Positions 25,029 through 54,651 of a DNA stretch of 64,000 nucleotides are shown piece by piece. The notes below the pieces were generated by a model. The model had not been told where the DNA came from and did not search any database. It saw only the letters and a list, made by a program, of their open reading frames with translations. The stretch spans positions 8,579 through 72,578 of the IMG/VR virus record IMGVR_UViG_3300009094_000001. One strand, given 5' to 3'. The position numbers and the translations under genes were made by a program. This stretch comes from a virus. The first letter of the stretch is position 1. The number at the start of each line of letters is the position of its first letter.

Positions 25029-25484
25029 TTAAATTTCTTTACCAAAAGTTTTCTCTACCGGTCGGTAGCCACGTCGCAGGTAAATTCCGTCCAGCAATTC
25101 TATCTGCGGAGTTTCCAGCCTCGCCATAAGAATTTTCTTACAGCCCCGCAACGCTGCCTCCGCCTCAAACGCATCGAAAAGTTTCCCAGCTAACTTCGCG
25201 CCGCGATACTCCGGCAGCACATACCAAAAGGACTCGCTCGCGGTCAGTAGCCCCGAGAAGCAGTCGGGAACGAACGCGCAACCCAAAATCGCAACCGCCC
25301 GGTTCTCGTGGTAAATCACGAACAGCGCGCCGATTTCCGTATCGAGCAAAGGGCCCCAATACTTGTCGAACGCTTCGTAGTTGAACCCGCCGGGGTGGTT
25401 CACCTCTTTGGCGAACGCGTGCCCAATCTCTTCAACGTCCCGGAGATTAACGCGAGTAATTTTTTCGATGGGGTCTAGGTGCAT
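25029..25484 (-). CDS. GNAT acetyltransferase (virion module)
   Basis: ESFWYVLPEYRG...LFDAFEAEA..RGC...YLRRGY. Confidence 0.85.
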   Translation of the reverse strand: MHLDPIEKITRVNLRDVEEIGHAFAKEVNHPGGFNYEAFDKYWGPLLDTEIGALFVIYHENRAVAILGCAFVPDCFSGLLTASESFWYVLPEYRGAKLAGKLFDAFEAEAALRGCKKILMARLETPQIELLDGIYLRRGYRPVEKTFGKEI

Positions 25485-26071
25485 GGGGTAAAAAAGGAGC
25501 AGAACACGAGCCGCCCGTTTTCAGGAGTCGTCCCGAAAGCCTTGAACGGAAATCTTGAGTGGAACGCGGCGGTTGGATAAGTGATGGCTCTGTTATACCG
25601 CATCTCAGCGAGATGCGTTTGCTCCCACGCCGAAACATCGTCCCAGTCTTTTGTCAGGCCCTCCCAAACTCGCTTCGGGTTCTTCCCCCGCCGAAGGATT
25701 TCTTCCTTGGTCGGCCAAGCAGTGAAACCCGTCTTGCGGTGACGCCAGAAGGCCGTTCCGCCGGAGCAGTCCTCCGGCTTGCTGAGATACAGCACCAGCG
25801 CGCACTTGTCGTATTGAGCATCGGAGTGAATCGCGCTGTTGGGGCTCTCGTCGCCGAAATTCAGGCGAAAGACTGAGTATCTCTGTTCGATTGGGGCCCC
25901 CACCCACTCTTCGATTTCGGATTTGAAAAGATATCGGGCGGCGACGGCGACGCGCTTATATAACTGCCCGTCCGGCCCCGTGATGTCCTGAAAAGGCATG
26001 TCCGGCATTAGGGCTCGAATCGCCCCCGGGTCTCGGAGGAAATCATCTTTCACAATGTAGGGCGGCGTCAT
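25475..26071 (-). CDS. 2OG-Fe(II) oxygenase-like protein
   Basis: IHSD...ALVLYL..GGTAFW...YNRAI.Y...FHSR (HxD..H triad). Confidence 0.8.
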   Translation of the reverse strand: MTPPYIVKDDFLRDPGAIRALMPDMPFQDITGPDGQLYKRVAVAARYLFKSEIEEWVGAPIEQRYSVFRLNFGDESPNSAIHSDAQYDKCALVLYLSKPEDCSGGTAFWRHRKTGFTAWPTKEEILRRGKNPKRVWEGLTKDWDDVSAWEQTHLAEMRYNRAITYPTAAFHSRFPFKAFGTTPENGRLVFCSFFTPCT

Positions 26072-26076
26072 CTAGT

Positions 26077-26106
26077 AAAGGTCCCCGAAACAGGAACCAA
26101 GTCAAG
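26077..26106 (-). promoter_or_regulatory. Class II promoter
   Basis: CTTGACT-N15-GGACCTTT; ATG 5 nt downstream. Confidence 0.75.
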
Positions 26107-26109
26107 CCG

Positions 26110-27189
26110 TTACAGCTTATAAAGGGTCCAGAGCCAGAGCGATTGGGGCTCGTTGTCGTGAGGCTGAGCAGCAGTAGTATACGCCTCGGCGTCCGCCTTA
26201 TCGTATTGCTTTGCCGTAATCAGCGTAGCGCCCGTGGTTCCATTGCCTGCGGTGCCCGCTACTGGGTCGCCCGCGATGTCTTGGCCGATTCCCTGCTGGG
26301 GGTTCGACCGAAAGTGATTCGGCGGAACCGGTGTGGGAATCTCCATGTCGTCCCCGTCGTCGATTCGGTGAATCCGAAAACGCTGGTCCGGCGCGTTGGC
26401 GAACATGTGCCCGATTTCGTGCGTGTGCTGCTCAACCTGCCGCGAGTTCAGCGTGACGTTTTGCGAACCCGACTGCTCGCCGGCAGCCTTGCCGGAGATG
26501 CCGGACTGCGTGGATAACGCCGAGACCGGGCTGGTGCCGGGGTCCTTGGACGCCATGCCGAGAAATCGGCCGCGCTGCGATTCGTCGTCTCGCCCGAGCA
26601 CGTCCCAGCCCGGGTTGTGCCGGAGTGCCTCCGTCAAAATAGTGTGCGTGACGTGCTTCACGTCGCCGGGTGAACCTGCAACCGTGCGCCAAGTGCCGCG
26701 CTCCCAGCGAATCAGCACGTTGATATCCGTGTCGAAATAATTTTCGAGGTCAACGGGTTCGGTGGGGCGGTTCGCCGTCGGGCCGGAGTGCGTGATGTTT
26801 GCGGACGCCTGCCACTCGGCCCCGTCCCACGCATATAGACCGACAATTCGGTTTTGCGAGGTTCGGAGCCAGACGAGCGGGTCGTCCGGTCCCGGCGTGC
26901 CGGGATTCGCATCTTGGGCAAAGAACAACGGAAGCTGCGACGCGGAAATGTCCTGCGGAATGTAGCGCCCTGCGGACGCACTAAATACCCACCACTGCGT
27001 TCCGTTTTTCAACCACGGGCCAACATTAGAAGAGGGCTCCACTTCGCCGATGACAAAGAAGTTGGTTCCGACGGGACTCAGGATTGCCAATCGGCGCACC
27101 ATCTCCTCGAAAAATTCTTGGACAGTTCCTTGGAAATCTTGGGGGAGCGGGGCAGCTCGTAAAACCAAATTCGTGCGGTTCAGGGACAT
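26110..27189 (-). CDS. Tail fibre/collar-like protein
   Basis: GWD...RGRFLG...GSQNVTL....HTH...AQPHDN tail-collar/needle pattern. Confidence 0.65.
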   Translation of the reverse strand: MSLNRTNLVLRAAPLPQDFQGTVQEFFEEMVRRLAILSPVGTNFFVIGEVEPSSNVGPWLKNGTQWWVFSASAGRYIPQDISASQLPLFFAQDANPGTPGPDDPLVWLRTSQNRIVGLYAWDGAEWQASANITHSGPTANRPTEPVDLENYFDTDINVLIRWERGTWRTVAGSPGDVKHVTHTILTEALRHNPGWDVLGRDDESQRGRFLGMASKDPGTSPVSALSTQSGISGKAAGEQSGSQNVTLNSRQVEQHTHEIGHMFANAPDQRFRIHRIDDGDDMEIPTPVPPNHFRSNPQQGIGQDIAGDPVAGTAGNGTTGATLITAKQYDKADAEAYTTAAQPHDNEPQSLWLWTLYKL

Positions 27190-27653
27190 ACTAGATTTAC
27201 TTTCTCTGCAATGCGCTTATCTGCATTGCGGTTTTTTGTTCGGACTCTGTGACAATTAGAGCAAACCAACTGGCACTTATCAATTTCTTGGCGTAGCTCC
27301 TCCAATGGTCGGCAAGTCGCCTGACCGATGGTAAATTTCTTATCCCTTAGGTGGTCGAAATCCATGCACTCGGGGGGAAACATTCCGCCGCAATCATAGC
27401 AAGGACGTTCGGCTTTAATGAAATGAATCAGTCGATAAAACCGCTCTTCTCGCCGGTTTATTCCCGCCAGATATTTTTCTCGGTTGTCTTGATTCCATTT
27501 TGAGGTTCTCTTACACTGACACTTTCGGCAAGTGGAAGATAATTTCCCCCGCATGGATTTCTTGGCCGAGCTTACAGGATACCGATAAGTATTCTCGTCG
27601 GTTTTCGTCACGCCGCATTTTGTGCAGTTCGGATTGATTGGATTTACATTCAT
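27180..27653 (-). CDS. HNH endonuclease
   Basis: RPCYDCG..FDH..EIDKCQLVCSNCHRVRT. Confidence 0.85.
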   Translation of the reverse strand: MNVNPINPNCTKCGVTKTDENTYRYPVSSAKKSMRGKLSSTCRKCQCKRTSKWNQDNREKYLAGINRREERFYRLIHFIKAERPCYDCGGMFPPECMDFDHLRDKKFTIGQATCRPLEELRQEIDKCQLVCSNCHRVRTKNRNADKRIAEKVNLVCP

Positions 27654-33934: not shown

Positions 33935-34486
33935 TTATTGCTTGGAATCGTCGATTCCGTCTTTGTTCGCATCGACGAATCCACGGAGTTTCCCGTGGCG
34001 ATTCGCAAACCAATACAGCACGGCGGCACCGATGCATGCGCCGAGAATCAAAAGCTCGTTTCCGACAATCAGCGTCGGGAGCACAATCAACGCAAGGCCC
34101 GCGAGAGTAATCACCGCACTGGTCGTCACGCTGGCTCCGACGAGAAGTTTCAGCGGAGGATAGACAAAGCTGGCCGCGCCGAACAGGAACACCAGCACGC
34201 CAATCCACGACACCCCGCGCAAAGACGAAAGCTTGGCGGCAACTTCGCGCCCCGTGTCTTTCTGAGCAGCGCCGAGGACCGTGTTGATTTCTTCGGTCGT
34301 TTTTCCATCTTTGGTCTCCTGCGTTCGTTTGTAAACCTGCGTAGTCCCTGTCTTCGGATTCTGCGACTGTTTCGTAGTGACGGTTGTTCCGTCCGGGGAT
34401 TTGTAAGAAACGCGCCCGGGTTTCAGCGGCGCAAAGGAGCAGCCGGAAATTGCTGCAATTAAAAGGATGAGGGGTAAACTTTTCAT
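33935..34486 (-). CDS. Lipoprotein with three C-terminal TM helices (unimolecular-spanin-like)
   Basis: Lipobox ISG-C with Ser at +2; three hydrophobic segments; ATGA-coupled to the holin candidate. Confidence 0.55.
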   Translation of the reverse strand: MKSLPLILLIAAISGCSFAPLKPGRVSYKSPDGTTVTTKQSQNPKTGTTQVYKRTQETKDGKTTEEINTVLGAAQKDTGREVAAKLSSLRGVSWIGVLVFLFGAASFVYPPLKLLVGASVTTSAVITLAGLALIVLPTLIVGNELLILGACIGAAVLYWFANRHGKLRGFVDANKDGIDDSKQ

Positions 34487-34689
34487 TCTGATTTTCGAGT
34501 CTTGCGCCACTTCGCCCAGATATAGAGAATCGTGACGGCGGCGACACCAAACTGCCCGATTTTGATTAGCCCGTCGAGTAGCGGGCCGGCTTTGTCGAAA
34601 AATTCCGTAAGCCACGGAACCGTGACGCCGATGACTGCGGCGGTTTTTACCTTCACCCACTCGGGCACTTGGGTATTCTCGGTCAGCAT
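34483..34689 (-). CDS. Putative holin
   Basis: 68 aa, hydrophobic segments, basic C-terminus (WAKWRKTRKSE). Confidence 0.55.
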   Translation of the reverse strand: MLTENTQVPEWVKVKTAAVIGVTVPWLTEFFDKAGPLLDGLIKIGQFGVAAVTILYIWAKWRKTRKSE

Positions 34690-35108
34690 AGTTTTTCCCT
34701 GCGGGCATCCGTTCGGACCCGGTGACAATTGGCACAAACCAATTGGCACTTGTCGATTTCTTTACGAACGTCATCCCACGAATATTTATAGCCTTTGGTG
34801 AGTTCAAAGGACTTGTCTCGGAGATGGTCAAACTCCATCGCAGACGGAGGAAAAATCGAGCCACAGTCATAGCAGGGACGCTCGGATTTCAAAGAGTTCA
34901 ACCGCTCTCGATAATCATTCCGAATTTCCGACATTCGTTCTCGGGAGACGATTTTAATTTGCTCGCGCTCCTCTGAGGATAGCCTCGCCCTATATTCCTG
35001 CGTATTCTCGGCGGCGCAGAGCCGACAATAGGAATATCTCCGGCCAGATTTTCCGGTCGTAAAATTTTCCTCCGGCTGAGGGAGCTTACATTTCGAGCAT
35101 ATTTTCAT
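34683..35108 (-). CDS. HNH endonuclease
   Basis: CSKC..CRLC..RPCYDCG..FDH..EIDKCQLVCANCHRVRT. Confidence 0.85.
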   Translation of the reverse strand: MKICSKCKLPQPEENFTTGKSGRRYSYCRLCAAENTQEYRARLSSEEREQIKIVSRERMSEIRNDYRERLNSLKSERPCYDCGSIFPPSAMEFDHLRDKSFELTKGYKYSWDDVRKEIDKCQLVCANCHRVRTDARREKLC

Positions 35109-35172: not shown

Positions 35173-36495
35173 TTAGGTGATTTCTTCCCCAACACAACCA
35201 CCCGGATTATTACAGTCTTCGGCCTCGCACACACCCAAGGTCGCGAACGAATCCGCGCCAGTGAAGCTGGACGAGCTAGGCACCTCGCAAGCTTCCAAGC
35301 CGAGGTCGGCCGGGCAGCGGAGGTAGAGAATCGGCACGATATGCTGCGGACGGACCGGCTGATACGCACGAGTAATCTGATACTTGTGCTGGCCGAAGTC
35401 ACCCCACAGGTTGCAATCGTTGTCGATTTCGTAGTGCCAATCGAGTTCGCCCATGTAAAGCTGGGGCGCGAACTTGAACGTGCCCTCGCCGGTGTAGCGT
35501 TCCGGGGTCAGGCGGTTGAATGAATTGTCGGCGAACAGGAAGCCAACTTCCCAGAGCGCGGCGAGCCACGTCGGGTTTGCCTTGGCATACGCCGTGTTCT
35601 TGCAGGTGTTGACGACCGTGATGACGGGGTCAATGAGCGCCAGCGTGCCGTCCTCGTTGAAACCGTTAGCCCGGAGGGGCCGTTGGTCGGTGCCGAGAGC
35701 GATGCCGCGATACGCGCCAGCCTGCTCAAAAGAGTAGGCGGAGATGGCAACCTCGCCGAGGCGATAGCTGCCCTGCGTCAAGCAACAGATGGCGTCCTTG
35801 ACGGACGTTTCGTTGCGGAACGCTTCGATGATGTCGGAGCTGCCGATGAAACGGAAATGGGGCATGCCCTTCCCGCCGGCATCGAACATTTCGGCGAACA
35901 GCGCTTCCTTCAAGTAGCGGGCGATGGTGTGCAGCGCCTTGAAAGAAATCGGAGCGGTCGGAGCGATGGGGGCGAACTTGACGCCAACATCCGTCTCGTT
36001 ACCGCCGGTGAACAGCGAGTCGAAATCGTAGCCGATGGCGGCGACGAACTTGGAAGCGGAACGCAGATACAACTGGGCGCGAATGTCCGAGTTGATATAC
36101 TGGGTCATCAGCTTCTTGAGCGAATCCTCGGCAGCGAGGTAGCTGGACTTGAACGCGGCGAAGCCTTTCTTGACGCAGACCCGAGGGCCGAGACCGCGTT
36201 TCGATTCGAGCTGTGCCGTGAATTCGACGGCGTCCGTGAGGTCTTGGAGACCAACGGTGCCGCACAATTCCAAATCGCACACAAACGTCGGAAGGGCGAG
36301 GCTATCCCCGGGGGCAGCCTGTTGCTGCACAGCCGTCCTGATAACATCAGAAACGCCGGAGGGGAACGTTCCACCTCCAATCACATTCATAAAAGGACTG
36401 TTAGCCGCGAGAGCCTTCGCGATGGTGCCCACAAGGCGGGCGGAATCCTTCCTCGCAATATCTGAGAGGTCGGAGGGGGTAATACAATCGGCCAT
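35173..36495 (-). CDS. Major capsid protein
   Basis: 440 aa; downstream of portal and scaffold, with its own promoter and strong terminator. Confidence 0.8.
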   Translation of the reverse strand: MADCITPSDLSDIARKDSARLVGTIAKALAANSPFMNVIGGGTFPSGVSDVIRTAVQQQAAPGDSLALPTFVCDLELCGTVGLQDLTDAVEFTAQLESKRGLGPRVCVKKGFAAFKSSYLAAEDSLKKLMTQYINSDIRAQLYLRSASKFVAAIGYDFDSLFTGGNETDVGVKFAPIAPTAPISFKALHTIARYLKEALFAEMFDAGGKGMPHFRFIGSSDIIEAFRNETSVKDAICCLTQGSYRLGEVAISAYSFEQAGAYRGIALGTDQRPLRANGFNEDGTLALIDPVITVVNTCKNTAYAKANPTWLAALWEVGFLFADNSFNRLTPERYTGEGTFKFAPQLYMGELDWHYEIDNDCNLWGDFGQHKYQITRAYQPVRPQHIVPILYLRCPADLGLEACEVPSSSSFTGADSFATLGVCEAEDCNNPGGCVGEEIT

Positions 36496-36647: not shown

Positions 36648-36677
36648 AAAGGTCCACACTTCGGACCAAAAGTCAAG
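36648..36677 (-). promoter_or_regulatory. Class II promoter
   Basis: CTTGACT-N15-GGACCTTT upstream of the capsid gene. Confidence 0.8.
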
Positions 36678-37527
36678 AGATTTTCGTCTTTCCCGGGACA
36701 TACATCATCTCCCCGAGGTGTCCGACCACGCAACCCAAATCGACGTAGCACTGGTGCCCCGCTTGGGCGGCGCGTCGGCAGAACTGAACGTCTTCGCCCA
36801 CGCCGAGGTTGCTCATACGTTGCGAGACGGCGAGCGCGCTTTCCAGACGTTTCGTGATGTCGGGTATGACGTTGATGTAATCAAGGTCGGACAAATTATA
36901 GAGGTCGGTCAAGGAATCCTGCACGGCTTCCACGAGGTCGTGCTCCGACGACGTGAAAAAATTCGAGCCGGTGCCATCCGGCTTGCGCGCGAGGCGGGGG
37001 AATTTCCTCTCGATGTCGAGGAAGACCGATTTATGGATGAGAACCCAGCCGAACCCGACCCACTGCGTCGGGCGAAGTTCGTCGCGCGGGCCGGCGTTCA
37101 CGTATTTTTCCAACTGCACGCCTTCCGCGAAAATGGATTTCGAGTGGGGCCAACGTCCACGATACAGCCCTCCTACGAGCGTCTTGCCGTGACTGAGAAG
37201 CCTGTCGATTCCGTGAAGGCCGGCGAAAAGCGGCGGGAGGTCGAAGCCCGTGAACTGATTGTAGAGAGCTGCGTTGCCGAAGGGCGGCACGTTGTCATCA
37301 TCGCACATCAGGCACCACTCCATGCCGGAGCGCAAAAACTGGTCAGCAAGTTTATTGCGCGAATGAGCCACAAAGGCGTCACCGAAATCCAGTGACAACG
37401 CCATGCGCTTCTTGTCGAAGAGCGTCATCAGCGCAAACAGCGTGCGGGGGTTCGTGGTTTTGTAGAACGGCAGGCACAACATCACCTGCTTGTTCTCGAT
37501 TAGCATCGTAGGGGTTGCTTCGCTCAT
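36673..37527 (-). CDS. GT-A fold (GT2-like) glycosyltransferase
   Basis: RNKLA..FL..MCDDD..GFGWVLIH..GEDVQFC..VD..VGH. Confidence 0.8.
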   Translation of the reverse strand: MSEATPTMLIENKQVMLCLPFYKTTNPRTLFALMTLFDKKRMALSLDFGDAFVAHSRNKLADQFLRSGMEWCLMCDDDNVPPFGNAALYNQFTGFDLPPLFAGLHGIDRLLSHGKTLVGGLYRGRWPHSKSIFAEGVQLEKYVNAGPRDELRPTQWVGFGWVLIHKSVFLDIERKFPRLARKPDGTGSNFFTSSEHDLVEAVQDSLTDLYNLSDLDYINVIPDITKRLESALAVSQRMSNLGVGEDVQFCRRAAQAGHQCYVDLGCVVGHLGEMMYVPGKTKIS

Positions 37528-41232: not shown

Positions 41233-41262
41233 AAAGGTCCGTAAAAAGGGGTCTGAGTCAAG
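41233..41262 (-). promoter_or_regulatory. Class II promoter
   Basis: CTTGACT-N15-GGACCTTT; ATG 9 nt downstream. Confidence 0.8.
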
Positions 41263-41511: not shown

Positions 41512-42098
41512 ACCTTACGCCAACAATTCGCCGGTAGCGACGGATTTGCGCTCGGGTTCTGATAAATGTGCACGCTGGTCGAGGTATCCTCCCCCAACAC
41601 ACGGCAGCCCTTCAACTTTTCGCCGATGGACGAGCTGCCGCCGAATAAAATCTGCTTGGCTGTCTTCCGCATGGCCTTGCAAGACCCGCAATTCGACGAG
41701 AGGGCCTTCTGCATCGGGCAGCCGGCGCAGATTGCTGCGCGACGACGCGCTTCTTCTCGGGAAACCGGCTGGGCTCCGCCAACTCGGCGCAGGCGAAGGA
41801 TTCCGACTAGCCATTGCACAACGGCGCGAGACGAGGCACGCGTCGATTGGTTTGCGGCAGCAACCGCGCGCTGCACCGGGGCCTCGGGTTTCGCCTCTTG
41901 GCAGTAGTCTGGTTGACGAGCGCAAACTTGGTCGAGGATTTCCTGCTCCGGGTCTCCCGGGGGTTTACCCGCGCGCTTACGATAGGACGCGACGCGCACC
42001 GCGAGGTGCTCCCACTGGTCAGCCTTGTGCTTGACGCCGTCCTCGTCGATGAAATATTTTCCGCCAATAGCGCGCAGGAATTTGTTAAACTTCTTCAT
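41508..42098 (-). CDS. Cys-rich protein
   Basis: RAAICAGCP..CGSC..GC..CW; similar pattern to the neighbouring ORF. Confidence 0.65.
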   Translation of the reverse strand: MKKFNKFLRAIGGKYFIDEDGVKHKADQWEHLAVRVASYRKRAGKPPGDPEQEILDQVCARQPDYCQEAKPEAPVQRAVAAANQSTRASSRAVVQWLVGILRLRRVGGAQPVSREEARRRAAICAGCPMQKALSSNCGSCKAMRKTAKQILFGGSSSIGEKLKGCRVLGEDTSTSVHIYQNPSANPSLPANCWRKV

Positions 42099-43987
42099 AG
42101 GTCAACCTCAGAAAACCGGTTTGTGATGTCAATGCGAACCTCGTCGCCGGAATAATAGTCCTCGTAGTCATCGCCGCCAGAAAGCGTGTTCTCGGAACTC
42201 ATGCCAAGGACAACGCCGGACGCTTTGCGGACCGCCTGCACCAGCAGGGACAACGCGTCGCAGTCGTCCGGGGACTTCCCTTGATTCCGGGACTTGTAGT
42301 CGGGCTTCGGCTCCACCTTGGAAAACTTCCCAGTCGCGCGGAATAGACGCCCGGTCATCTGCGGGTAAAGCTCGGAGGTCTCCAGCCCGGGCAGCGCTTT
42401 GAGGTATCCAAACTCAATGAACTTTCGCAGCGCGAACATCAGCTCGCTCTGCATGCGGTCGTAGAGTTTGTGCGCCACGTCGGAATCTTCCACCATGATG
42501 CGAGTCTCGGACGCGCTCTCGGAGTAGTTGACGCCGGTAATCCCGACGCCCCACTCGTATTTCATAAGGTCAAAAACCCCTTGCATGTTACCCGTTCGGT
42601 CGAGTGCCAGCCACTCTGGCGTAATTCCGAGAGATTTCGCCAGCCGCACGATTTCATTTTTCATCGCGACGGTATCGCCCTTCGGCAGGAGGAAAATCTT
42701 ATCGAGTTGCAACGCGAAGCGGGGGTATGCGCGGCCCTTGGCGTTCTTGAACATGATGATGCGCCCGTTCGGATGTTGCAGCGTCGGCGGGAACTTTATC
42801 CCGGTTGCCATGCCCCACTTCCCGGACGCGAAGCGAGCGGAGTCTCCGCCCTCCAACGCACCGTCCACGCCCCCGCACGGTCTTGGATTTTCATACCAAA
42901 TAAACTCCGCCTTGAACTCGTCCAGCATGCCGACGGGAATAATCGATAGAACGGTGCCGAGGGGCGGGAAGCATCCGCGCGCCATCGCCCAGTATCCCGG
43001 CGTGTCCGTTCCGCCAGAGTTGCGGATGATTTGATTGAACCCCTCCAAGGTCTGCAACCCCGGGAAAATAACTCTCCCGGCTTTGACGTTCTCGCTGTAT
43101 TTTGCGTCTAGGCGCACGACGAACCAGCCGCGAGTGGACCGCCACTCAAAGTGCGTGTCCGGGTCAAACGAAGGCCAGCCAAAGGGCGGCTCGCAGCGCT
43201 GCCCGACGAGGTCGTTCTGGTCCGTGGGGTTGAACGCGCCCCCGACTTTAAGTCCGTCGCCGGACATATTCGACATGATGTTGTCGAGGTCCCGATGCAC
43301 GCCGGCCGGAATGTTCGCGATTTCGTCGAGGAACACAAACAACCGGGACATCTCGCCGAAAATGGGGTGCGGGACCTTACGTGGAATGCGCTTCACGCCC
43401 TGCAATCTCCCGGCGGCTTTTTTCCCGAGAGGAATCACGACGCCGGTGATGGAGCCTTTGCGCGCCCGCTTGTCGAGACCGATGTAAAGCTTTCCGACCT
43501 CTCCCGGAAGCGGAATGGTGCTGGTTTTGTGCAGCGTGACTAAGTGCGTGAAAAGATTATCCTCCAAGTGCGTCTCGCTCGGGCCGAGGACTTTAATTGT
43601 AGTATATTCCGGGTCGCGAATCCATTGCAGAAACAGCCACACGGCGGAGGAAAAGGATTTGCCCATCGACCCCGCGCCCATGAACAGCATGAAATTGTTG
43701 TTCTCCCACGCGTCCCACACGCGCCGAACGCACTCCGGCTCTGCCGTGAATTGCGTGGGGCCCCAGAGCAGCCTCGCGGCATCCTCAAGCCCGTCGTTGT
43801 TCAGGCAATATTGCAACAAAATATTCAGGAGCGTGTATGCCTCCGCCTTTTTTGTCGGGTCTGGGACCTTGGTGCCTGTGCTGCGCACCCACTCCGCGAC
43901 GAGCTTCGCGGCTTCAAAGGGCTTGTCCGCGTGTAGCAACACGCTGACCTCGTTTACGAGCTGTTTTTGTGGTCCGTCGGGTAGCAT
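42095..43987 (-). CDS. terL: Terminase large subunit
   Basis: Walker A GAGSMGKS, Walker B VFLDE, nuclease GVDG..GGD, LDRTG, SPDDCDA; ATG at 43987 overlaps the upstream TAA. Confidence 0.9.
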   Translation of the reverse strand: MLPDGPQKQLVNEVSVLLHADKPFEAAKLVAEWVRSTGTKVPDPTKKAEAYTLLNILLQYCLNNDGLEDAARLLWGPTQFTAEPECVRRVWDAWENNNFMLFMGAGSMGKSFSSAVWLFLQWIRDPEYTTIKVLGPSETHLEDNLFTHLVTLHKTSTIPLPGEVGKLYIGLDKRARKGSITGVVIPLGKKAAGRLQGVKRIPRKVPHPIFGEMSRLFVFLDEIANIPAGVHRDLDNIMSNMSGDGLKVGGAFNPTDQNDLVGQRCEPPFGWPSFDPDTHFEWRSTRGWFVVRLDAKYSENVKAGRVIFPGLQTLEGFNQIIRNSGGTDTPGYWAMARGCFPPLGTVLSIIPVGMLDEFKAEFIWYENPRPCGGVDGALEGGDSARFASGKWGMATGIKFPPTLQHPNGRIIMFKNAKGRAYPRFALQLDKIFLLPKGDTVAMKNEIVRLAKSLGITPEWLALDRTGNMQGVFDLMKYEWGVGITGVNYSESASETRIMVEDSDVAHKLYDRMQSELMFALRKFIEFGYLKALPGLETSELYPQMTGRLFRATGKFSKVEPKPDYKSRNQGKSPDDCDALSLLVQAVRKASGVVLGMSSENTLSGGDDYEDYYSGDEVRIDITNRFSEVDL

Positions 43988-44349
43988 TAATGAACAAATC
44001 TTCCAGCTGGCTCCAGCCACTTCTCGTCGCGGGAAATAAAGGTGTGGGTGTAGGCGTCTAACTGGTAAACCAGAGCTTCCCCCCGGTCCCTCCCAAAGAA
44101 CCTTCTCATAATCCACGCAATGTCGTGGGAAACCTGACTGAGGTCGGAGTAAAAAACCATCCCCTTACATTCTTCCCAGCGGGCGAAGTCCTCGATAAAT
44201 TCGGTGCTCGGCACCCACTTCAACCAATCCTGCTTTACATTTTTCTTAAGTCGCTCGTCATCCCAGATGCACGCGAAGAAAAATCGAATAGGCTCAGCCG
44301 GCGGAGGCGGAAAAGGTTTTGTTTCCTCAGTTGTGTCGCCCAGTTCCAT
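43987..44349 (-). CDS. Hypothetical protein
   Basis: Coupled between fcl and terL. Confidence 0.55.
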   Translation of the reverse strand: MELGDTTEETKPFPPPPAEPIRFFFACIWDDERLKKNVKQDWLKWVPSTEFIEDFARWEECKGMVFYSDLSQVSHDIAWIMRRFFGRDRGEALVYQLDAYTHTFISRDEKWLEPAGRFVH

Positions 44350-45284: not shown

Positions 45285-45983
45285 TTAAAAGGGGCGAATC
45301 GCTTCGATGAATTTATACTTCGGCCAATATCCGCGACTGTGCATCGCAAATCCGTAGTGAACAAGCGGGCTCGTGCGGTATCCGGCGTAATCATACAACG
45401 CGCAAACACCGTTCGTCTTTACCATCCATTCCGGCTTGGGTCGTGCAGCATCCCCGGCGACGGGATGAAACATGCGCGCAAGCATTGACAAATCATCTTG
45501 GTGGTATACATTAGAATTGTGCGCGAAGTCCAGTTCATCATATTTCCAAGAAGCGAAAAGCTCCGCGATGTCAAGAAAATGCTGGGGGATGCCGAGGACC
45601 GCGCCCATGTAAATCGACTCCGGCGGAGTGTCGCAGAGGATTTCCATTTTCCCCGGCTCCGGCGGGCGCGGGGCGAACCCATAATTAATCACATCGTAGT
45701 CGGACAAAAGCACCGGCTCGTTTACACGCTCGCCGATGACATACGCGCCAAACCAACGGAGAAAACACGCGGCGGTGTAGTCCACGGGATACGCAGTCGG
45801 CTTGGCGTAATAATGCTCCTTGAAGAATTCAAAGCGGGGGTGGTCCCGGATATGACTCTCGTCGATGACGAGCGGCTCCCAGCCGGCCTTGCGCCAACTG
45901 CGCTCCCAGATTTTGATTAGCTCACGCTGCGATTGGTCGGACCAGAGACCGGGGACAGGGACATAATACGTGATAACCTTCAC
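45285..45983 (-). CDS. Putative glycosyltransferase (DxD)
   Basis: WERSW..GW..CFLRW..LSDYDVIN; GTG start overlaps the upstream TGA. Confidence 0.6.
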   Translation of the reverse strand: MKVITYYVPVPGLWSDQSQRELIKIWERSWRKAGWEPLVIDESHIRDHPRFEFFKEHYYAKPTAYPVDYTAACFLRWFGAYVIGERVNEPVLLSDYDVINYGFAPRPPEPGKMEILCDTPPESIYMGAVLGIPQHFLDIAELFASWKYDELDFAHNSNVYHQDDLSMLARMFHPVAGDAARPKPEWMVKTNGVCALYDYAGYRTSPLVHYGFAMHSRGYWPKYKFIEAIRPF

Positions 45984-46720
45984 AATAACCTTTTCCGGGC
46001 AATTTCCAGCAAGCTGTTGTCCTTGGTTCCGTGGACCCATCGAACGCCGGCCGCGCGCAGGATATCCCACTCCGCTGGCTGGAACGTCGGACGCTTCCAG
46101 TGCGATTGAATGCCGGGGATGTTCGCCCAGCCCTTCAATTCATATTGCGGAGCTAACACCCAATCGTGTCCGCCGCCGCCCCGGATTACACTACCCGCTT
46201 GTTTCGCGAGAAAAGTCAAAAAATCCAGCTCGCCAGAAATCAGCATGCAGTCCGCGTTAATGTGGGAACCGCCTTGGCAGCGCGCATTGCCGCCGACCAT
46301 TGCGCCGGCAACTTTGACTCCATGTTTACACAGCCGGTCCCACTCGCTGTGCAAATAGAGAAGCCCGTCGTTGACGAGCGGCGCGGTGTCCGAGGCGAGA
46401 TTGAGAATGGCTTTATACTTTGGAAGCTTTCCGCCGGAGATTCCGCGCAGGCACCAGTCAATACTGCCGAAAAATAATCCGTTGCATCCCTGCGGCCATC
46501 CCGTCTCGGGACGTTGAGAAATTGCGGTGAAAACGGTGAATTTCCTTGAGACGTGGTTAATCGAAGCGGTATCGTGTTTGCAGTCCCGTCTGGCCACGAA
46601 CGCAAAATCACATGCTCCTGAGTGGACGGACTGGAGGTCCGCCAGCAGGCGCGCGAGCGTCATCGCTTGGGCCCGGTCGCCTTTCCAGTAAGACAGGAGA
46701 ATCAGGATTTTGTCGGTCAC
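45980..46720 (-). CDS. Putative glycosyltransferase-like protein
   Basis: GWPQGCN..SDTAPL..W..HIN..D..VHGTKD pattern and position inside the sugar cluster. Confidence 0.5.
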   Translation of the reverse strand: MTDKILILLSYWKGDRAQAMTLARLLADLQSVHSGACDFAFVARRDCKHDTASINHVSRKFTVFTAISQRPETGWPQGCNGLFFGSIDWCLRGISGGKLPKYKAILNLASDTAPLVNDGLLYLHSEWDRLCKHGVKVAGAMVGGNARCQGGSHINADCMLISGELDFLTFLAKQAGSVIRGGGGHDWVLAPQYELKGWANIPGIQSHWKRPTFQPAEWDILRAAGVRWVHGTKDNSLLEIARKRLL

Positions 46721-47771: not shown

Positions 47772-48353
47772 TTATTGTGGCCCGTCGGTAACCCGACTCG
47801 GGCATTGCTTATCCTGGCCATCCTCCGCTAGTTTCTGCTTCCCGGAAGGGCGATTACGCTCTGGTCCGGCTATGTCGGGAGTTATGGTCGGGAAGTTCGG
47901 CGAAGCAAACTCGCCAAAATATTTGCGCGCGGCGACATCATAGGCTTTCGCGGCTTCGATTTCAAATTGAAAAGTCCCCAAGTGAATCTGTTTTCTACCC
48001 ATCTGAATTTGCGCCGCCCACTTTTTATCTCGATTTTTCCATGATACTCCGCGATATCTGGACGAGGCCCTAGGTGATTTACGCAGGTGCCCCATCTTGT
48101 TTTGCGAGGAGGTCGCCGGCCGCAAATTTTCCCTCTGGTTATTAAGGCCGTCACCATCGCGATGGTCAATTTCCGAATGCCCGGGCAAAAGAAAACGATG
48201 GAGCCGCTGTGTCCCACTTCTTCGAGGGAGATTGCGAATTGCGTAGAAAGTATGCCGGTCCCTTCGGGCACACCACTTAAACTGATTAACCGCCTCGTAA
48301 TCGGCGTCGTCAACCATTGCGAATTTGCCCTGCGACAGCTTGATGGTCTTCAC
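47772..48353 (-). CDS. HNH-AP2 homing endonuclease
   Basis: IDHRDGDGLNNQRENLR plus AP2 domain (YRGVSW..LGTF..AAKAYD). Confidence 0.9.
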   Translation of the reverse strand: MKTIKLSQGKFAMVDDADYEAVNQFKWCARRDRHTFYAIRNLPRRSGTQRLHRFLLPGHSEIDHRDGDGLNNQRENLRPATSSQNKMGHLRKSPRASSRYRGVSWKNRDKKWAAQIQMGRKQIHLGTFQFEIEAAKAYDVAARKYFGEFASPNFPTITPDIAGPERNRPSGKQKLAEDGQDKQCPSRVTDGPQ

Positions 48354-48680: not shown

Positions 48681-48685
48681 AAATT

Positions 48686-48758
48686 TGGCGGGCAGAGACG
48701 GGTTTTAACCGCCGTTTCCGAGACAAAAGCTCGGTGTCCTCACTTAGACGATTCGCCC
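48686..48758 (-). tRNA. Non-canonical tRNA, anticodon UUU (Lys)
   Basis: GGGCGAA..GTCTAAGTGAGGAC-A-CCGAG CTTTTGT CTCGG-AAAC-GGCGG TTAAAAC CCGTC-TCTGCCC-G-CCA. Confidence 0.65.
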
Positions 48759-48779
48759 TATCAAAAGAACAACCGCTAC

Positions 48780-48809
48780 AAAGGTCCGCAAAACGAACCC
48801 AAAGTCAAG
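48780..48809 (-). promoter_or_regulatory. Class II promoter for the tRNA-like cluster and sugar operon
   Basis: CTTGACT-N15-GGACCTTT. Confidence 0.8.
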
Positions 48810-49299: not shown

Positions 49300-49300
49300 A

Positions 49301-50807: not shown

Positions 50808-50947
50808 ATCACTCCTAAAAGCTTGGCCCACTTTGTCAGCAGCCGGTTAATCGAGTCGTCCCGCTTTGGTGCGTGTAACCCGCCGGCAGCGTTGGAAAGC
50901 GCGCGGACGATAAGCACGAGATATTGCTGATTTGTCGAAGGTCCCAC
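50804..50947 (-). CDS. 47-aa hypothetical protein
   Basis: GTG start after the upstream TAG; ATGA overlap with the next gene; not in the ORF track. Confidence 0.45.
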   Translation of the reverse strand: MGPSTNQQYLVLIVRALSNAAGGLHAPKRDDSINRLLTKWAKLLGVI

Positions 50948-50948
50948 G

Positions 50949-51215: not shown

Positions 51216-51220
51216 GCATG

Positions 51221-51250
51221 AAAGGTCCGCAAAACGGGAGGGGAGTCAAG
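51221..51250 (-). promoter_or_regulatory. Class II promoter
   Basis: CTTGACT-N15-GGACCTTT; ATG 5 nt downstream. Confidence 0.8.
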
Positions 51251-51257
51251 CGTTGCG

Positions 51258-51770
51258 TCAGATGAAAAACTCGGGCTCTGGCAACGTCGGCGGTAGGCCA
51301 GCTCGTCGTCGCGCCGTGCGGACACGATGGCAGTTGGAACACACCAAATCGCATTTTGCCATCTCCTTGAGAAGGTCTTCTCGCTTGGTCAGCTTCAACA
51401 AACTACTCACATTCGCGGATTTAGTCGAGGGGTCCCGGTGGTCAAAATCCATCGAGTGTGGATGAAAAATACCCCCGCAATCAGCGCATGGCTTTCGACT
51501 TTTTTCCGCCGCAATCATCTTATAGCGGTCCCGGGAAAGCTGTCGGGACCATTCCTTTTGACGCTCTATTTTTGCCTCGGGGGGAAGCGCCACAAGCGCC
51601 CTCCTCCGAAGTAGCACGGCCTGTTTGTCGGGGGGTAGCGATGCCAATTTCTTAGCTCGGTCCTTCTCGGTTCGACAATCCCGACAGATATGGTCCCTAG
51701 CCCGCCGAGGGCCTTTTGAATGAAAGTGTTCTGGGGGTCTAATGGCTTTGCATCGATTACAAGTTTTCAT
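51258..51770 (-). CDS. HNH endonuclease
   Basis: CNRC..CRDC..PCADCG..FDHRDP..KCDLVCSNCHRVRT. Confidence 0.85.
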   Translation of the reverse strand: MKTCNRCKAIRPPEHFHSKGPRRARDHICRDCRTEKDRAKKLASLPPDKQAVLLRRRALVALPPEAKIERQKEWSRQLSRDRYKMIAAEKSRKPCADCGGIFHPHSMDFDHRDPSTKSANVSSLLKLTKREDLLKEMAKCDLVCSNCHRVRTARRRAGLPPTLPEPEFFI

Positions 51771-51776
51771 ACCCCC

Positions 51777-51806
51777 AAAGGTCCGCACTAAAAACCCAAA
51801 GTCAAG
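51777..51806 (-). promoter_or_regulatory. Class II promoter
   Basis: CTTGACT-N15-GGACCTTT; ATG 6 nt downstream. Confidence 0.8.
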
Positions 51807-52143
51807 GGCTTTTAACCTCGCGGGTCTCAAAAATAATATTGCCCGGGAGGCGTCGAGCGACATCGTGGGGCCCCCAAGTCCCCCGGGTCTATACCGATAA
51901 AGTGCTCAGAATCAGGACGTTTCGTCGGTCCGGCGGTTCGGTGGCAGGGCGCGCCACAGGCTGACGGATTGTGCCCAGTGTGCGGGCTACAGGTCGTTGA
52001 GGCGTAGTGACATCGAGGCGGTGGGGCGTTTTGGCGTGAGAATCACGCACCGACTGTGCCAAAAAGTCACTTCTGGGTCGTTTTGTCGCGCTTCGCTCGA
52101 TTTAAATTCGCTCAAGCTGTAGGTCAAGCCACAAAATACCTGC

Positions 52144-52172
52144 TTGACAAGCTGCGCGCCGTGGTGTAATTT
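52144..52172 (+). promoter_or_regulatory. sigma70-type promoter, leaderless
   Basis: TTGACA-N17-TAATTT; ATG at 52179 opens a 24-aa ORF (MSKELL..., ends 52253). Confidence 0.75.
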
Positions 52173-52271
52173 ATCGGCATGAGCAAAGAACTACTTCAAC
52201 AGTCGGAACAACTGGGGCGCGAGTGCTGCCTTGGAAAACCAACCGACCGCTGAGAATCCGCAGGTAAATAT

Positions 52272-52508
52272 ATGAAGAACCGAGTTTTCTTTTTTCACTA
52301 CAACAAGCCCGCGTCGCAAGCGCAAAAGAAAAACGTGCTGACGGTCCATTGGAAGGGTGCGTGCTGCCTCGCCCATCACATTAAATGTTTTCGGCCCGTC
52401 GAGACTGCACACCGGAAATCTCAGCCGCGCTGCGTCATCAAAGGAAAGGCCGAATCAATAGCTTTCTCTTTAACCGAGAGCGGCGAAACCCTCGCTACGA
52501 TTATATGA
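52272..52508 (+). CDS. Hypothetical phage protein
   Basis: FFFHYNKPAS..LTVHWKGAC..QPRCVIKG. Confidence 0.6.
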   Translation: MKNRVFFFHYNKPASQAQKKNVLTVHWKGACCLAHHIKCFRPVETAHRKSQPRCVIKGKAESIAFSLTESGETLATII

Positions 52509-52696
52509 AAAGCGTTCGACGGAAAATAGTAAAAAGGTATCCACCCACGGCAATCCACGGGTGCTATGTCCGAATAGTCAAATTATCTTGCGGCCACGAA
52601 CAAGAGATATCGAACGCTTTTTATTCCCACACTGGAAGCACGACTATTTGTCACCGCTGCTCGGTTCCGAAGCAGGAGAATCCACAGCCTGTATGA
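52505..52696 (+). CDS. Small zinc-binding protein
   Basis: LSCGH...CHRC; ATGA-coupled. Confidence 0.5.
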   Translation: MKSVRRKIVKRYPPTAIHGCYVRIVKLSCGHEQEISNAFYSHTGSTTICHRCSVPKQENPQPV

Positions 52697-52875
52697 AACT
52701 CTGGAGATTAACGCGAATCACAAAAACCCACGTCTATGTCCTTCCACTTTGTTACGGAGCTTGCTCCCGCGCACGGCAGCGCGGCCTGTCTCGACGAATC
52801 CCTATTGAGGAATTTCACCGGGACTGGGAACGACTCCCTCAGCGCGAGTGCTGTCTTCGCCAGAGGACAGCTTGA
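52693..52875 (+). CDS. Hypothetical protein
   Basis: ATGA-coupled ORF. Confidence 0.4.
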   Translation: MKLWRLTRITKTHVYVLPLCYGACSRARQRGLSRRIPIEEFHRDWERLPQRECCLRQRTA

Positions 52876-52908
52876 CTACGAGGTCATCCTAAAAGCGTGG
52901 CAATGAGT

Positions 52909-54651
52909 TCACTCCACAGTAACGCTCTTGGCCAGACCACGCGGCTTGTCCACGTCTCGGCCGAGTGCAACAGCGATGTGATACGCGAACAGTTGCAACG
53001 GTATCGCTGCCAGCATTGGCACAAAGGGCTCAGCAGTCTCGGGCAGCCAGATTACGTCGTCAACCTCGGATGCGATGCTGTCGTTGCCCTCGGTAGCAAG
53101 TGCAATCACCGGACCACCACGGGACTTAATCTCGCGTAGGTTACTGAACGTCTTGCTGTATAGCCTACCGTTCGGTATGACGATGACGCTTGGGGTGCTG
53201 CTGTCAATCATCGCCAGCGGTCCATGCTTCATCTCTCCGGCTGGCAATCCTTCTGCGTGAATGTAGGAAATCTCCTTGAGCTTCAACGCGCCTTCCAACG
53301 CAATCGGGTAGTTGTATCCTCGGCCAAGGAAAAAGAAACTCTTGGCGTTTGCGTATTTGGTGGCGATGCTTTGAATTTCGTAATCCTTGGCGAGTAGCAT
53401 TTCAATTTGCTCTGGTATCGCCTTGAGTGCGGATTGCAAAGCCTTGTCGTGGGGTGGAACTGCAAGTGAGGCTAGCACACGAAGCTGGGCGGTGAATGTT
53501 TTCGTCGCAGCCACTCCAATCTCGGGGCCCGCGTCTAGATAGATAACGCGGTGTGCTTCTCGCGCAAGCGTGCTGCCGGGCGCGTTACAGATTGCAACGG
53601 TCCAGTGGTCTTTGTTCTCGCGAACGCAGGCCAACGTGTCTGCCGTCTCTCCGCTTTGGGACAGCGCCAGAATCACAGGTCTTTTTCCAGTGACGTGGCT
53701 TGAATACCGGAACTCGCTAGCGAAATCAACCTGCGTAGGAATACCGGCGAACTCCTCAAAAAAGTATTTGCCAATCAGCGCTGCGTGTCTGCTCGTGCCG
53801 CAGGCGGGAATGAAAATCTGCTCGACTCCGCGTAGCGCAGATAGAGCCCCGTCGCTGCTGCTAATCCTTCTGATTACTTCCGGCTGCTCGTAAATCTCAC
53901 TGAGCATCGCGTGGGGAAATCCTGCGCTGGGGTCAGTGGGCGGTGCGCTGCGCAGCCTCTTCATTTCTCTGAACTGTAGTTCAGGAGTAAGCGCCACTAA
54001 ATCACCGTCCCGCAAGTAAACAACATTCAGAGTGTGCTCGCGAATTGCCTCGGCATCGCTGGATAAAAACCTCTCGTTATCTCCAATGCCGACGACAAGG
54101 GGCAATCCTTTACAAGCGCCGACCACCACACCGGGCCAATCCACACAGGCCACGGCGATTGCGTAGTCTCCGACGACCTCGCGCAAGGCATCAGCAACTG
54201 AGCTGGCTAGATGAAAACGCTTTTCGTAATACGCTCCAATCAACCACGCGAGAACTTCGCTATCCGTGCCGGAAGAGAACCGAGGCTCTCCTTGCAGCTC
54301 TCGAATACGGTTGTGCAGATACCCAACGTTCTCGATGATGCCGTTATGGACAACTGCAATTCTCCCGCTCTTGTCAGTGTGTGGGTGCGCGTTGGCGTCA
54401 CTCGGTTCTCCATGCGTGGCCCAGCGCGTGTGGCCGATACCGGTTGTTCCTCGAATCTCTACGGGGTCGGCGAGAAGGAGCGGCTCAAGGCCCTCGCTGA
54501 TTTTCCCGGCCTTCTTGCGGACAAACATTCGGTCATCTGACACGACTGCGAGGCCAGCGCTATCATAGCCCCGATACTCAAGCTTCTTGAGGCCGGCGAG
54601 GATAATCGGCTTGGCTTGGTGCTGCCCAACGTATCCGTAAATTCCACACAT
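52909..54651 (-). CDS. glmS: Glutamine--fructose-6-phosphate aminotransferase
   Basis: MCGI, LEYRGYDSAG, GHTRWATHG, HNG, SQSGETADT, EGALKLKE, KHGP, PRGLAKSVTVE. Confidence 0.97.
   Translation of the reverse strand: MCGIYGYVGQHQAKPIILAGLKKLEYRGYDSAGLAVVSDDRMFVRKKAGKISEGLEPLLLADPVEIRGTTGIGHTRWATHGEPSDANAHPHTDKSGRIAVVHNGIIENVGYLHNRIRELQGEPRFSSGTDSEVLAWLIGAYYEKRFHLASSVADALREVVGDYAIAVACVDWPGVVVGACKGLPLVVGIGDNERFLSSDAEAIREHTLNVVYLRDGDLVALTPELQFREMKRLRSAPPTDPSAGFPHAMLSEIYEQPEVIRRISSSDGALSALRGVEQIFIPACGTSRHAALIGKYFFEEFAGIPTQVDFASEFRYSSHVTGKRPVILALSQSGETADTLACVRENKDHWTVAICNAPGSTLAREAHRVIYLDAGPEIGVAATKTFTAQLRVLASLAVPPHDKALQSALKAIPEQIEMLLAKDYEIQSIATKYANAKSFFFLGRGYNYPIALEGALKLKEISYIHAEGLPAGEMKHGPLAMIDSSTPSVIVIPNGRLYSKTFSNLREIKSRGGPVIALATEGNDSIASEVDDVIWLPETAEPFVPMLAAIPLQLFAYHIAVALGRDVDKPRGLAKSVTVE

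Follow-up and report, generated by a model that had tools for sequence, protein, structure and literature searches.

A late gene region of an environmental phage joins nucleotide-sugar enzymes and candidate glycosyltransferases to putative head genes: a possible virion glycosylation system

The stretch of DNA analysed here (the window) comprises 64,000 nucleotides, bases 8579-72578 of one 72,578-bp virus record (IMG/VR IMGVR_UViG_3300009094_000001) that carries direct terminal repeats and whose completeness is rated 100%. Nearly all genes from ~15 kb to 55.8 kb of the window are on the minus strand, and the plus strand holds the replication genes, including a family A polymerase-like protein and a UvrD-like helicase. 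The minus-strand genes encode three nucleotide-sugar enzymes (GlmS, a PglF-like dehydratase and an Fcl-type epimerase/reductase), three candidate glycosyltransferases (GTs) that we call GT284, GTc246 and GTb234, putative head proteins, three collagen-like proteins and a DUF6445 protein (Table 1). An earlier reading, made from the letters and their open reading frames (ORFs) without database searches (hereafter the sequence-only reading), had proposed that these genes form a phage-encoded virion glycosylation system built around the collagen fibres. We describe the genes, their conservation in related phages and the readings that they allow.

The three nucleotide-sugar enzymes proved to be what the sequence-only reading had called them. 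GlmS matched TIGR01135 with 665.6 bits over residues 2-580, essentially its full length and above the equivalog cut-off of 418.05; the protein begins Met-Cys and combines an N-terminal glutaminase domain (GATase_6) with two SIS stretches. The CapD/PglF-type UDP-GlcNAc 4,6-dehydratase scored 184.8 bits with PF02719 (Polysacc_synt_2, gathering score 20.2), and its best solved relative was the catalytic domain of Campylobacter jejuni WlaL/PglF (5bju, E 1.4e-38, residues 28-281). The STDKA...MGxxK stretch is kept, 'stdkavkpttvmgaskk' aligning to 'STDKAVRPTNIMGCTKR' of 5bju; we take it to be the catalytic Thr-Asp-Lys stretch of PglF, with Met replacing the usual Tyr of short-chain dehydrogenases/reductases (SDRs), the residue roles being assumed from the PglF structure. 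Scores with the models of inverting dehydratases stayed below their cut-offs (PseB TIGR03589, 87.6 vs 407.75 bits; FnlA TIGR04130, 64.2 vs 730 bits). The PglF-like protein has no hydrophobic segment. A search of the whole genome for a PglE-type aminotransferase (PF01041) found none, and the bacillosamine route is thus incomplete.

The Fcl-type SDR scored 185 bits with PF01370 and 369.2 bits with NF047922, under the equivalog cut-off of 500 for the latter. Solved GDP-fucose synthases matched it at E 8.6e-84 to 6e-79, the Escherichia coli enzyme (1bws/1bsv) over its full length at E 6e-79. The columns S107, C109, Y136, K140 and H179 of 1bws are all conserved; presumably they form the Ser/Tyr/Lys catalytic triad, with the Cys and His acting as acid and base in 3,5-epimerisation. 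The complete genome contains no Gmd, PF16363 matching only the Fcl and PglF genes, and an Fcl without its own Gmd depends on the host pathway. In relatives the Fcl orthologues adjoin Gmd, and Fcl without Gmd is common there also; the window protein is 57.9% identical to orthologues paired with Gmd and 57.0% to one paired with PglF. Because the catalytic columns are kept and the orthologues adjoin Gmd, GDP-L-fucose is favoured as the product: judging from sequence, formation of GDP-L-fucose from host GDP-4-keto-6-deoxymannose appears roughly twice as probable as reduction of a UDP-keto sugar. The earlier placement of this enzyme in a route to a 6-deoxy-HexNAc donor is therefore disfavoured.

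The candidate GTs are more difficult to assign. GT284, GTc246 and GTb234 gave no Pfam, NCBIfam or PDB-sequence match, singly or as profiles, no hydrophobic or membrane segment was seen in any of them, and a six-frame search of the whole genome with PF00535 was empty at E<=0.1. For GT284, 476 homologues were found, and the 120 listed carry no Pfam domain. An alignment of 36 of these proteins shows no variation at D76-D77-D78 and G244-E245-D246-V247, and we take the 'EDV..C.R' motif of GT284 to resemble one near the C-terminus of many GT2 enzymes. A model of the exact protein is available in the ESM Atlas (pTM 0.76), and 193-225 of its residues align to PF00535-bearing viral clusters with TM 0.63-0.72. 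GT284 is thus the best-supported candidate of the three, and the model suggests a GT-A/GT2-like enzyme.

GTc246 belongs to a family with 1494 representatives at E<=1e-3, which conserves E109-x-D111, H153-x-N155, H230 and a C-terminal H-G-x-K. Among ten fused forms scanned, one partner matched PF03407 (35.9 bits) and another PF00535 (69.7 bits), a third fell just under the PF00535 cut-off (22.6 vs 23.3 bits), and seven of the ten partner regions had no family. Across 121 members no consistent Pfam family emerged, with 3/121 matching NTP_transf_3 at E>=0.084, and the Atlas search gave weak leads only, at 0.92. The domain fusions, the conserved E-x-D and the gene context make GTc246 a candidate GT. 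For GTb234, 47 homologues were found, none with a Pfam domain, and D97-x-D99 is invariant; a natural fusion, P0338, consists of a GTb-like and a GTc domain. The D-x-D motif and this one fusion make GTb234 a weak candidate. Profile-profile comparisons among the GT candidates and island families (see below) were empty, as were comparisons of the candidates with the GT2 and PF03407 domains from fused proteins, in which the positive control (two GT2 domains) failed too. The claim of three GT-like ORFs is best supported for GT284, through its invariant DDD and GT2-like Atlas model, and is tentative for GTc246 and GTb234, where it draws on motif, fusion and context.

PglF, GTc246, GTb234 and Fcl form a compact unit with start/stop overlaps, which continues into the terminase gene. 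GT284 lies elsewhere: it closes the portal-scaffold unit, directly before the promoter of the putative major capsid gene. The putative capsid protein, with 50-96% identity, is conserved more strongly than any other protein in the clade. Its tail (encoded at 35173-35350) carries the pattern RC.ADLGL..C..SSS[FY][ST]G.D....GVC, and behind this pattern the related loci (L001-L080) show a hypervariable extension 0-29 residues long.

The window has hundreds of relatives in a protein collection and in IMG/VR, on contigs of mostly 67-75 kb, and soil and rhizosphere metagenomes are the main source of the clade. Three sequencing runs that contain the sequence in full are labelled rhizosphere metagenome and may be its source; no RNA run containing it was listed. 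Searches of INPHARED with 19.5 kb of DNA and with the capsid, GT284, terminase and portal proteins matched no cultured phage. A scan of genome contigs for a host returned 12 loci in metagenome-assembled genomes of mixed taxa (Peribacteraceae, Rhodoferax, Hyphomicrobiales, Sulfuritalea and others), which are probably mis-binned phage contigs. For a comparison of gene order we fetched 80 related viral loci with 10-kb flanks through the GT284 alignment, so that GT284 is in 80/80 by construction, and mapped all late window proteins onto them by tblastn. The conserved order was terminase - p196 - p81 - portal - p104 - scaffold - GT284 - GTc246 - variable island - capsid - lipoprotein - collagen-like fibre. 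The scaffold match ends <=400 nt upstream of GT284 in 67/78 loci. GTc246 was found in 74/80 loci and lay between GT284 and the capsid gene in 65 of the 67 loci holding both; the two exceptions are the window's closest relatives, in which GTc stands upstream of the terminase with PglF, GTb and Fcl, as in the window. A more distant contig with a GT284 homologue of 28% identity still has it ~2 kb downstream of the portal gene. GT284 and GTc246 are thus core genes between the scaffold and putative capsid genes across the clade.

The island before the capsid gene varies from 0.6 to 5.1 kb in the relatives. We clustered 189 non-overlapping island ORFs, which gave GTc, SDR enzymes (46 ORFs in 32 loci), a 247-amino-acid family (c2, in 27 loci), HNH genes and smaller groups. 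Ten island representatives were compared with Pfam: four were Gmd (404-462 bits), one a pyruvyl transferase (PF04230), one a sulfotransferase (PF13469), and four had no family. The remaining SDR members are Fcl orthologues (38-58% identity), and Fcl-type matches lie within the island in 32/67 loci. Homing endonucleases apart, all island genes that could be annotated are therefore glycan enzymes, among the representatives scanned. Family c2 travels with the SDR genes, being present in 23/32 SDR-positive and 4/35 SDR-negative loci (uncorrected for relatedness).

The nucleotide-sugar supply genes of the window are, by comparison, rare. GlmS is absent from 10/10 near-complete relatives and the PglF family from the 5/5 searched. 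PglF-like genes were seen on only two other contigs (behind loci L061 and L093): one is the closest relative, and in the other the gene again stands beside GTb and Fcl. Single-sequence scans of viral contigs returned just two distant N-terminal matches for GlmS and the closest relative only for PglF. The two PglF-bearing records gave no GlmS match, which, at a completeness of 62% and 43%, carries no information. In the closest relative (L093) a 355-amino-acid ORF (710-1777, plus strand of that locus) lies upstream of the PglF-GTc-GTb-Fcl cassette, where the window has the HNH-AP2 and tRNA-Lys genes.

The sugar genes and head genes share a promoter motif, CTTGAC-N16-GGACCTTT, with nine matches in the window against none in 100 shuffles. 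Seven of the nine copies are on the late (minus) strand, each heading a unit: p172-p202-GlmS; p109-collagen(GPT); tRNA-Lys - HNH-AP2 - PglF - GTc - GTb - Fcl - terminase; portal-scaffold-GT284; capsid-to-fibres; and a unit with DUF6445 as first gene, the seventh copy lying just before the probable true start of an HNH gene. The other two copies precede plus-strand genes, one of them the DNA polymerase gene, so this promoter class is not exclusively late. The sequence-only reading had described late-strand operons headed by class II promoters; the repeated motif is real, but its strictly late character is not. The sigma-70-family factor that the phage encodes on its plus strand, with regions 2 and 4, may read the motif. 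A second promoter class, CTTGACA-N17-TGTAATTTA-like and followed ~7 nt on by GGCATGAGCAA, suggests sigma-70-type promoters with leaderless or near-leaderless starts; one copy, on the opposite strand, falls within the 1 kb that separates GlmS from its neighbouring late gene. A scan of 25-45 kb with sigma-70 and terminator consensus patterns showed no excess over shuffles.

The collagen-like proteins on which the sequence-only reading had centred the system are real, all three scoring above the PF01391 gathering score of 27.2 bits. The 292-residue protein has 49 G-X-Y triplets, 37 with Thr at Y; the 413-residue protein, a core gene with matches in 54/80 loci, has 19; and the 395-residue protein has 26, eight of them GTN, together with 11 N-x-S/T sequons, so that the Thr-rich GPT/GAT and GTN runs were recovered by count. 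Their connection to the sugar genes was not. Co-occurrence across related phages, proposed earlier as a check, did not discriminate: collagen-like genes lie downstream of the capsid gene in 28/29 relatives with SDR nucleotide-sugar genes and in 22/22 without, and the fraction of Thr at Y is 0.29 with and 0.34 without them (p 0.73). The closest relative has the same PglF-GTc-GTb-Fcl cassette and no collagen-like run in the 3.3 kb upstream. The collagen fibres are a trait of the clade and not a partner of the sugar genes. The supposed 2-oxoglutarate-Fe(II) (2OG-Fe(II)) oxygenase likewise lost its footing: the protein matches DUF6445 only, the 2OG-Fe(II) models PF13640 and PF13759 were empty at E<=10, and a phmmer search of the PDB gave no relevant solved structure. 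By eye an H-x-D...H pattern can be seen, and we assume that DUF6445 is a member of the 2OG-Fe(II) oxygenase clan.

Our preferred reading is that the region is a late gene set with a phage-encoded protein-glycosylation module acting on a virion protein; we hold it with a confidence just short of even. Counting the variant in which the fibres are the target, virion glycosylation as a whole becomes somewhat more probable than its absence. We infer a cytoplasmic protein glycosylation from the tight PglF-GTc-GTb-Fcl unit, the place of GT284 before the capsid promoter, the core GT pair and the sugar island, and moreover from the soluble nature of the candidate GTs in a genome with no membrane priming transferase, GT2 or aminotransferase. 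In the proposed mechanism GT284, GTc246 and GTb234 would be soluble GTs present in the cytoplasm during head assembly and would attach a short glycan to a virion protein. The likeliest target would be the putative capsid protein, perhaps its Ser-rich C-terminal tail, and less likely the collagen-like fibres. GlmS would raise the UDP-GlcNAc pool, the PglF-like enzyme would make UDP-4-keto-6-deoxy-GlcNAc, and Fcl would make GDP-L-fucose from host GDP-4-keto-6-deoxymannose or, alternatively, reduce the UDP-keto sugar to a 6-deoxy-HexNAc. What gains support of the earlier proposal is the phage-encoded virion glycosylation as such, through the core candidate GTs in the head operon and the glycan genes in the same slot; its collagen focus, its Fcl route and its 2OG component are not supported. 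A broader proposal for the clade, in which capsid glycosylation is built into the head operon with two core GT-A enzymes and a hypervariable island that swaps GDP-fucose, 6-deoxy-HexNAc, pyruvyl and sulfate modules, seems to us possible, on the doubtful side.

Several observations count against a virion glycosylation system. GTc246 and GTb234 are without fold-level or family-level support: PDB profile searches with both were empty, and GT-family or Pfam matches occurred in 0/39 members of the GTb234 family. The 'scaffold', 'capsid' and 'portal' proteins had no family or PDB match, so that their names are positional, and the acceptor protein and its glycan are both putative. In the most distant subclade GT284 and GTc are present and the Ser-cluster capsid tail is absent. 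Promoter timing cannot separate the readings, the motif standing also ahead of the DNA polymerase gene. The island could be a mere permissive insertion site with strong late expression, and pyruvyl and sulfo transferases usually act on cell-surface polysaccharides. A capsid-tail motif, GD[DN]E[ST]P, was found in 16/25 loci with c2 and in 2/39 without (Fisher p 4e-7, uncorrected for relatedness); we rejected this link as independent evidence, as the capsid-core tree confines the motif to one subclade, and of the independent pairs 1-2 were concordant, 0 discordant and 4-5 without difference (sign test p >= 0.5). Finally, cyanophages have Gmd/Fcl genes for which the cited passages show no virion role (PMC10611076). 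As a separate observation, two sister loci without c2 and SDR genes have GDNEAP where their relatives have GDNE[ST]P.

The same genes might instead remodel the host surface, the sugar enzymes and transferases altering lipopolysaccharide (LPS), capsule or exopolysaccharide from a head-operon site that is merely permissive and highly expressed; the purpose could be to block superinfection or to aid release, as is assumed for the LPS-type islands of cyanophages. We consider this unlikely, while granting it real weight. The hypervariability of the island and its polysaccharide-tailoring enzymes (PF04230 and PF13469) would fit such a role, GlmS, PglF and Fcl act as accessory metabolic genes in their distribution, an Fcl without Gmd relies on the host pathway, and cyanophage Gmd/Fcl are reported as metabolic genes in the part of the literature cited (PMC10611076). 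However, GT284 and GTc246 are core and not accessory, the genome lacks a membrane-anchored priming transferase, a flippase and a polymerase, the candidate GTs have no hydrophobic segment, and neither PF00535 nor PF01041 matched anywhere in the whole genome. A further alternative follows the example of BclA: the collagen-like fibres would be the chief acceptor, with glycosylated Thr-rich GPT/GAT or NGT repeats and hydroxylation of the fibres by the DUF6445 protein. Three genuine collagen-like proteins, one rich in Thr at Y and another in N-x-S/T sequons, and the position of the GPT-collagen unit between the GlmS and PglF units speak for this, as does Mimivirus L230, which in the cited passages hydroxylates and glucosylates viral collagen-like proteins (PMC9614988). 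Yet the collagen genes and their Thr content are indifferent to the SDR genes, the closest relative has the identical cassette with no collagen-like run nearby, the core GTs adjoin the capsid gene and not the fibre genes, and the DUF6445 protein matches neither 2OG-Fe(II) model tried. Moreover, Thr-rich collagen repeats are, to our knowledge, common in phage fibres for which no glycan is known. We therefore regard the fibres as an improbable main acceptor.

Hypermodification of DNA, in which the sugars would decorate modified bases to evade restriction as in the T-even, glycosyl-5hmC and 5hC systems, seems to us very improbable. Glycosylation of DNA by phage GTs, with a variety of glycans, is on record in the passages cited (10.1101/2023.12.21.572611; PMC13326640), the promoter class of the sugar genes is also found ahead of the DNA polymerase gene, and the H-x-D...H pattern seen in the DUF6445 protein would fit a dioxygenase. 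But neither a member of the thymidylate-synthase/dCMP-hydroxymethylase family nor a C5-cytosine methylase was found in the complete genome, the core GTs are placed between scaffold and capsid, away from the replication genes on the other strand, and the sulfo and pyruvyl transferases of the relatives' island have no known role on DNA. A TET/JBP search of the genome was empty, with a control that was silent in every genome. We also give little credence to the possibility that the three ORFs are not GTs at all, GT284 and GTc246 being other head-assembly factors and the sugar enzymes unrelated accessory metabolic genes. The empty family, structure and profile-profile comparisons favour this explanation, and the Atlas evidence is a lead and not a test; against it stand the invariant acidic triad of GT284 and the length of its model alignment to GT2-bearing clusters, the repeated fusion of GTc to recognised GT domains, and the fact that every annotatable non-HNH gene inserted alongside in relatives is a glycan enzyme.

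The virion glycosylation proposed here can be compared with several known systems. In the mycobacteriophages Che8, Corndog and Myrna, virions are glycosylated by phage GTs (Freeman et al. 2023, cited in PMC12363180; PMC11256854). Like the present phage they are tailed, and the proposal for their soluble GTs is that they modify capsid (and tail) proteins within the cytoplasm of the bacterium; glycans were shown on their virions, whereas the system here is known from genes alone. In Maravista (cluster F1, a close relative of Che8) the GT genes are near the 3' end of the genome, in contrast to their place between scaffold and capsid here (PMC11256854), and the mycobacteriophage passages describe no GlmS, PglF, Fcl or Gmd genes (PMC12363180; PMC11256854). 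The chlorovirus PBCV-1 builds glycans on its major capsid protein with virus-encoded GMD, GMER, GFAT and GTs (PMC9614988). It shares with the window the viral sugar-nucleotide enzymes (GMER/Fcl and GFAT/GlmS), GTs that in the window are candidates and, as proposed for the window, upstream precursors supplied by the host and a cytoplasmic glycosylation; it differs as a eukaryotic giant virus with multi-domain GTs, N-linked glycans and its own GMD, which is absent here. GFAT of PBCV-1 serves hyaluronan synthesis. Mimivirus has GFAT, GNAT, deoxy-amino-sugar enzymes and the collagen-modifying L230 (PMC9614988). It too combines several collagen-like proteins with its own GFAT and GNAT, and L230 glycosylates its collagen; that lysyl-hydroxylase/GT fusion is absent here, where the DUF6445 protein falls outside the recognised 2OG-Fe(II) enzymes and the collagen genes do not track the sugar genes.

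At the level of single enzymes, the phage relative of C. jejuni PglF (WlaL, 5bju), its best solved relative, is short, soluble and without hydrophobic segment, and the phage Fcl shares its five catalytic columns with E. coli Fcl/GMER (1bws, 1bsv) and differs in having no Gmd partner and in standing in a unit with a UDP-GlcNAc dehydratase. Cyanomyophage Gmd/Fcl genes sit in hypervariable islands. Cyanomyophages such as P-SSM2 are described as carrying Gmd and Fcl in variable regions, like the relatives here (PMC10611076). Unlike here, they do not have them, in that description, in a head operon beside core candidate GTs. By analogy the present system would work like those of mycobacteriophages, chloroviruses and Mimivirus, without a sequence relationship to them, and INPHARED phages showed no sequence relation to GT284, capsid, portal or terminase. 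What is distinct here are two undescribed candidate GT families fixed between scaffold and capsid, a variable tailoring island, and GlmS together with a PglF-type dehydratase. Full-text literature searches returned no description of a GT pair between phage scaffold and capsid genes.

Table 1. Features of the window, with positions counted from its first base
Feature	Position	Strand	Remarks
Sigma-70-type factor	8242-8892	+	regions 2 and 4
Second promoter class, four copies	13390-13439, 52143-52192, 55911-55960, 61966-62015	+	
2022-aa protein	15866-21934	-	
HNH-type genes	21938-22567, 27180-27653, 34683-35108, 47772-48353, 51258-51863, 55249-55767	-	
GNAT-type acetyltransferase, 151 aa	25029-25484	-	phrog_1249, E 1.2e-12; adjoins DUF6445 gene
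DUF6445 protein, 198 aa	25475-26071	-	PF20043 50.9 bits; phrog_1644
Promoter motif of DUF6445 gene	26077-26106	-	
Collagen-like fibre protein with GTN/NGT run, 395 aa	31383-32570	-	PF01391 48.7 bits
Collagen-like fibre protein, 413 aa	32788-34029	-	PF01391 30.9 bits; PHROG tail-fibre families
Small lipoprotein-like gene	33935-34345	-	
Putative major capsid protein, 440 aa	35173-36495	-	own promoter; Ser-cluster, Cys-rich C-terminal tail
Promoter motif immediately 5' of putative capsid gene	36648-36677	-	
GT284, GT-A/GT2-like candidate, core gene	36673-37527	-	last gene of portal-scaffold unit
Putative scaffolding protein, 437 aa	37524-38837	-	PEPK/T-rich N-terminus, then charged helical part; named by position and composition
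Putative portal, 697 aa	39130-41223	-	named by position and conservation in 75/80 loci
Promoter motif of putative portal gene	41233-41262	-	
Two Cys-rich small proteins, 81 and 196 aa	41266-42098	-	CxxC pairs
Terminase large subunit	42095-44116	-	phrog_2, E 1.2e-8
Fcl-type 3,5-epimerase/4-reductase, 318 aa	44327-45283	-	true start is Met43 of the long ORF
GTb234, accessory, weak GT candidate	45285-45989	-	
GTc246, candidate GT domain, core clade protein	45980-46720	-	undescribed family
Soluble PglF/CapD-type UDP-GlcNAc 4,6-dehydratase, 361 aa	46720-47805	-	PF02719
tRNA-Lys (anticodon TTT)	48686-48758	-	directly downstream of motif heading PglF-to-terminase unit
Promoter motif heading tRNA-Lys to terminase unit	48780-48809	-	
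Collagen-like protein, GPT/GAT, 292 aa	49624-50502	-	PF01391 74.1 bits; PHROG tail-fibre families
Promoter motif before p109 and GPT/GAT collagen-like gene	51221-51250	-	
GlmS, glutamine--fructose-6-phosphate transaminase, 580 aa	52909-54651	-	TIGR01135
Promoter motif heading p172 (HNH) - p202 - GlmS	55868-55897	-	

Several other genes of the window are listed in Table 1. The small lipoprotein-like gene directly after the capsid and HNH genes is conserved in 28 related loci; its product has the signal MKSLPLILLIAAISGC and hydrophobic C-terminal segments (maximum KD19 2.46). The two Cys-rich proteins between terminase and portal were found in 56/80 (81 residues) and 72/80 (196 residues) related loci, and the smaller matches phrog_13558. 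At least six genes for HNH-type endonucleases, including an HNH-AP2 fusion, are dispersed across the late operons; several of their products have in common the C-terminal pattern 'CYDCGG.FPP..MDFDH...CxNCH', and p172-like HNH ORFs also occur in the scaffold-capsid island of 11 relatives. The 2022-residue protein follows Gly/Ala-rich proteins of 358 and 470 residues, has DUF7178 near its C-terminus as sole family match, and might serve as an internal or ejection protein; among the window proteins we recognised none of the tape-measure, sheath or tube type. As to the GNAT-type acetyltransferase, Mimivirus is described, in the passages cited, as pairing GFAT with a GNAT that acetylates GlcN-6-P (PMC9614988).

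Phage virion glycosylation has so far been shown only for some mycobacteriophages. If the reading of virion glycosylation is true, head morphogenesis in a large environmental clade without a cultured member would include glycosylation as a conserved core element, served by a nucleotide-sugar supply of its own and by an exchangeable tailoring island, and two new GT families with a defined protein acceptor would be added. The clade would then be a model for changes of phage surface chemistry, which bears on adsorption to the soil matrix, on stability and on escape from grazing or binding. The broader proposal, if true, would mean diversifying, serotype-like glycan coats on the capsids, possibly sulfated or pyruvylated, a bacterial-virus counterpart of the chlorovirus capsid glycans. 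If the genes remodel the host surface instead, the locus would still be an unusual fixed site for the exchange of glycan genes beside a capsid gene.

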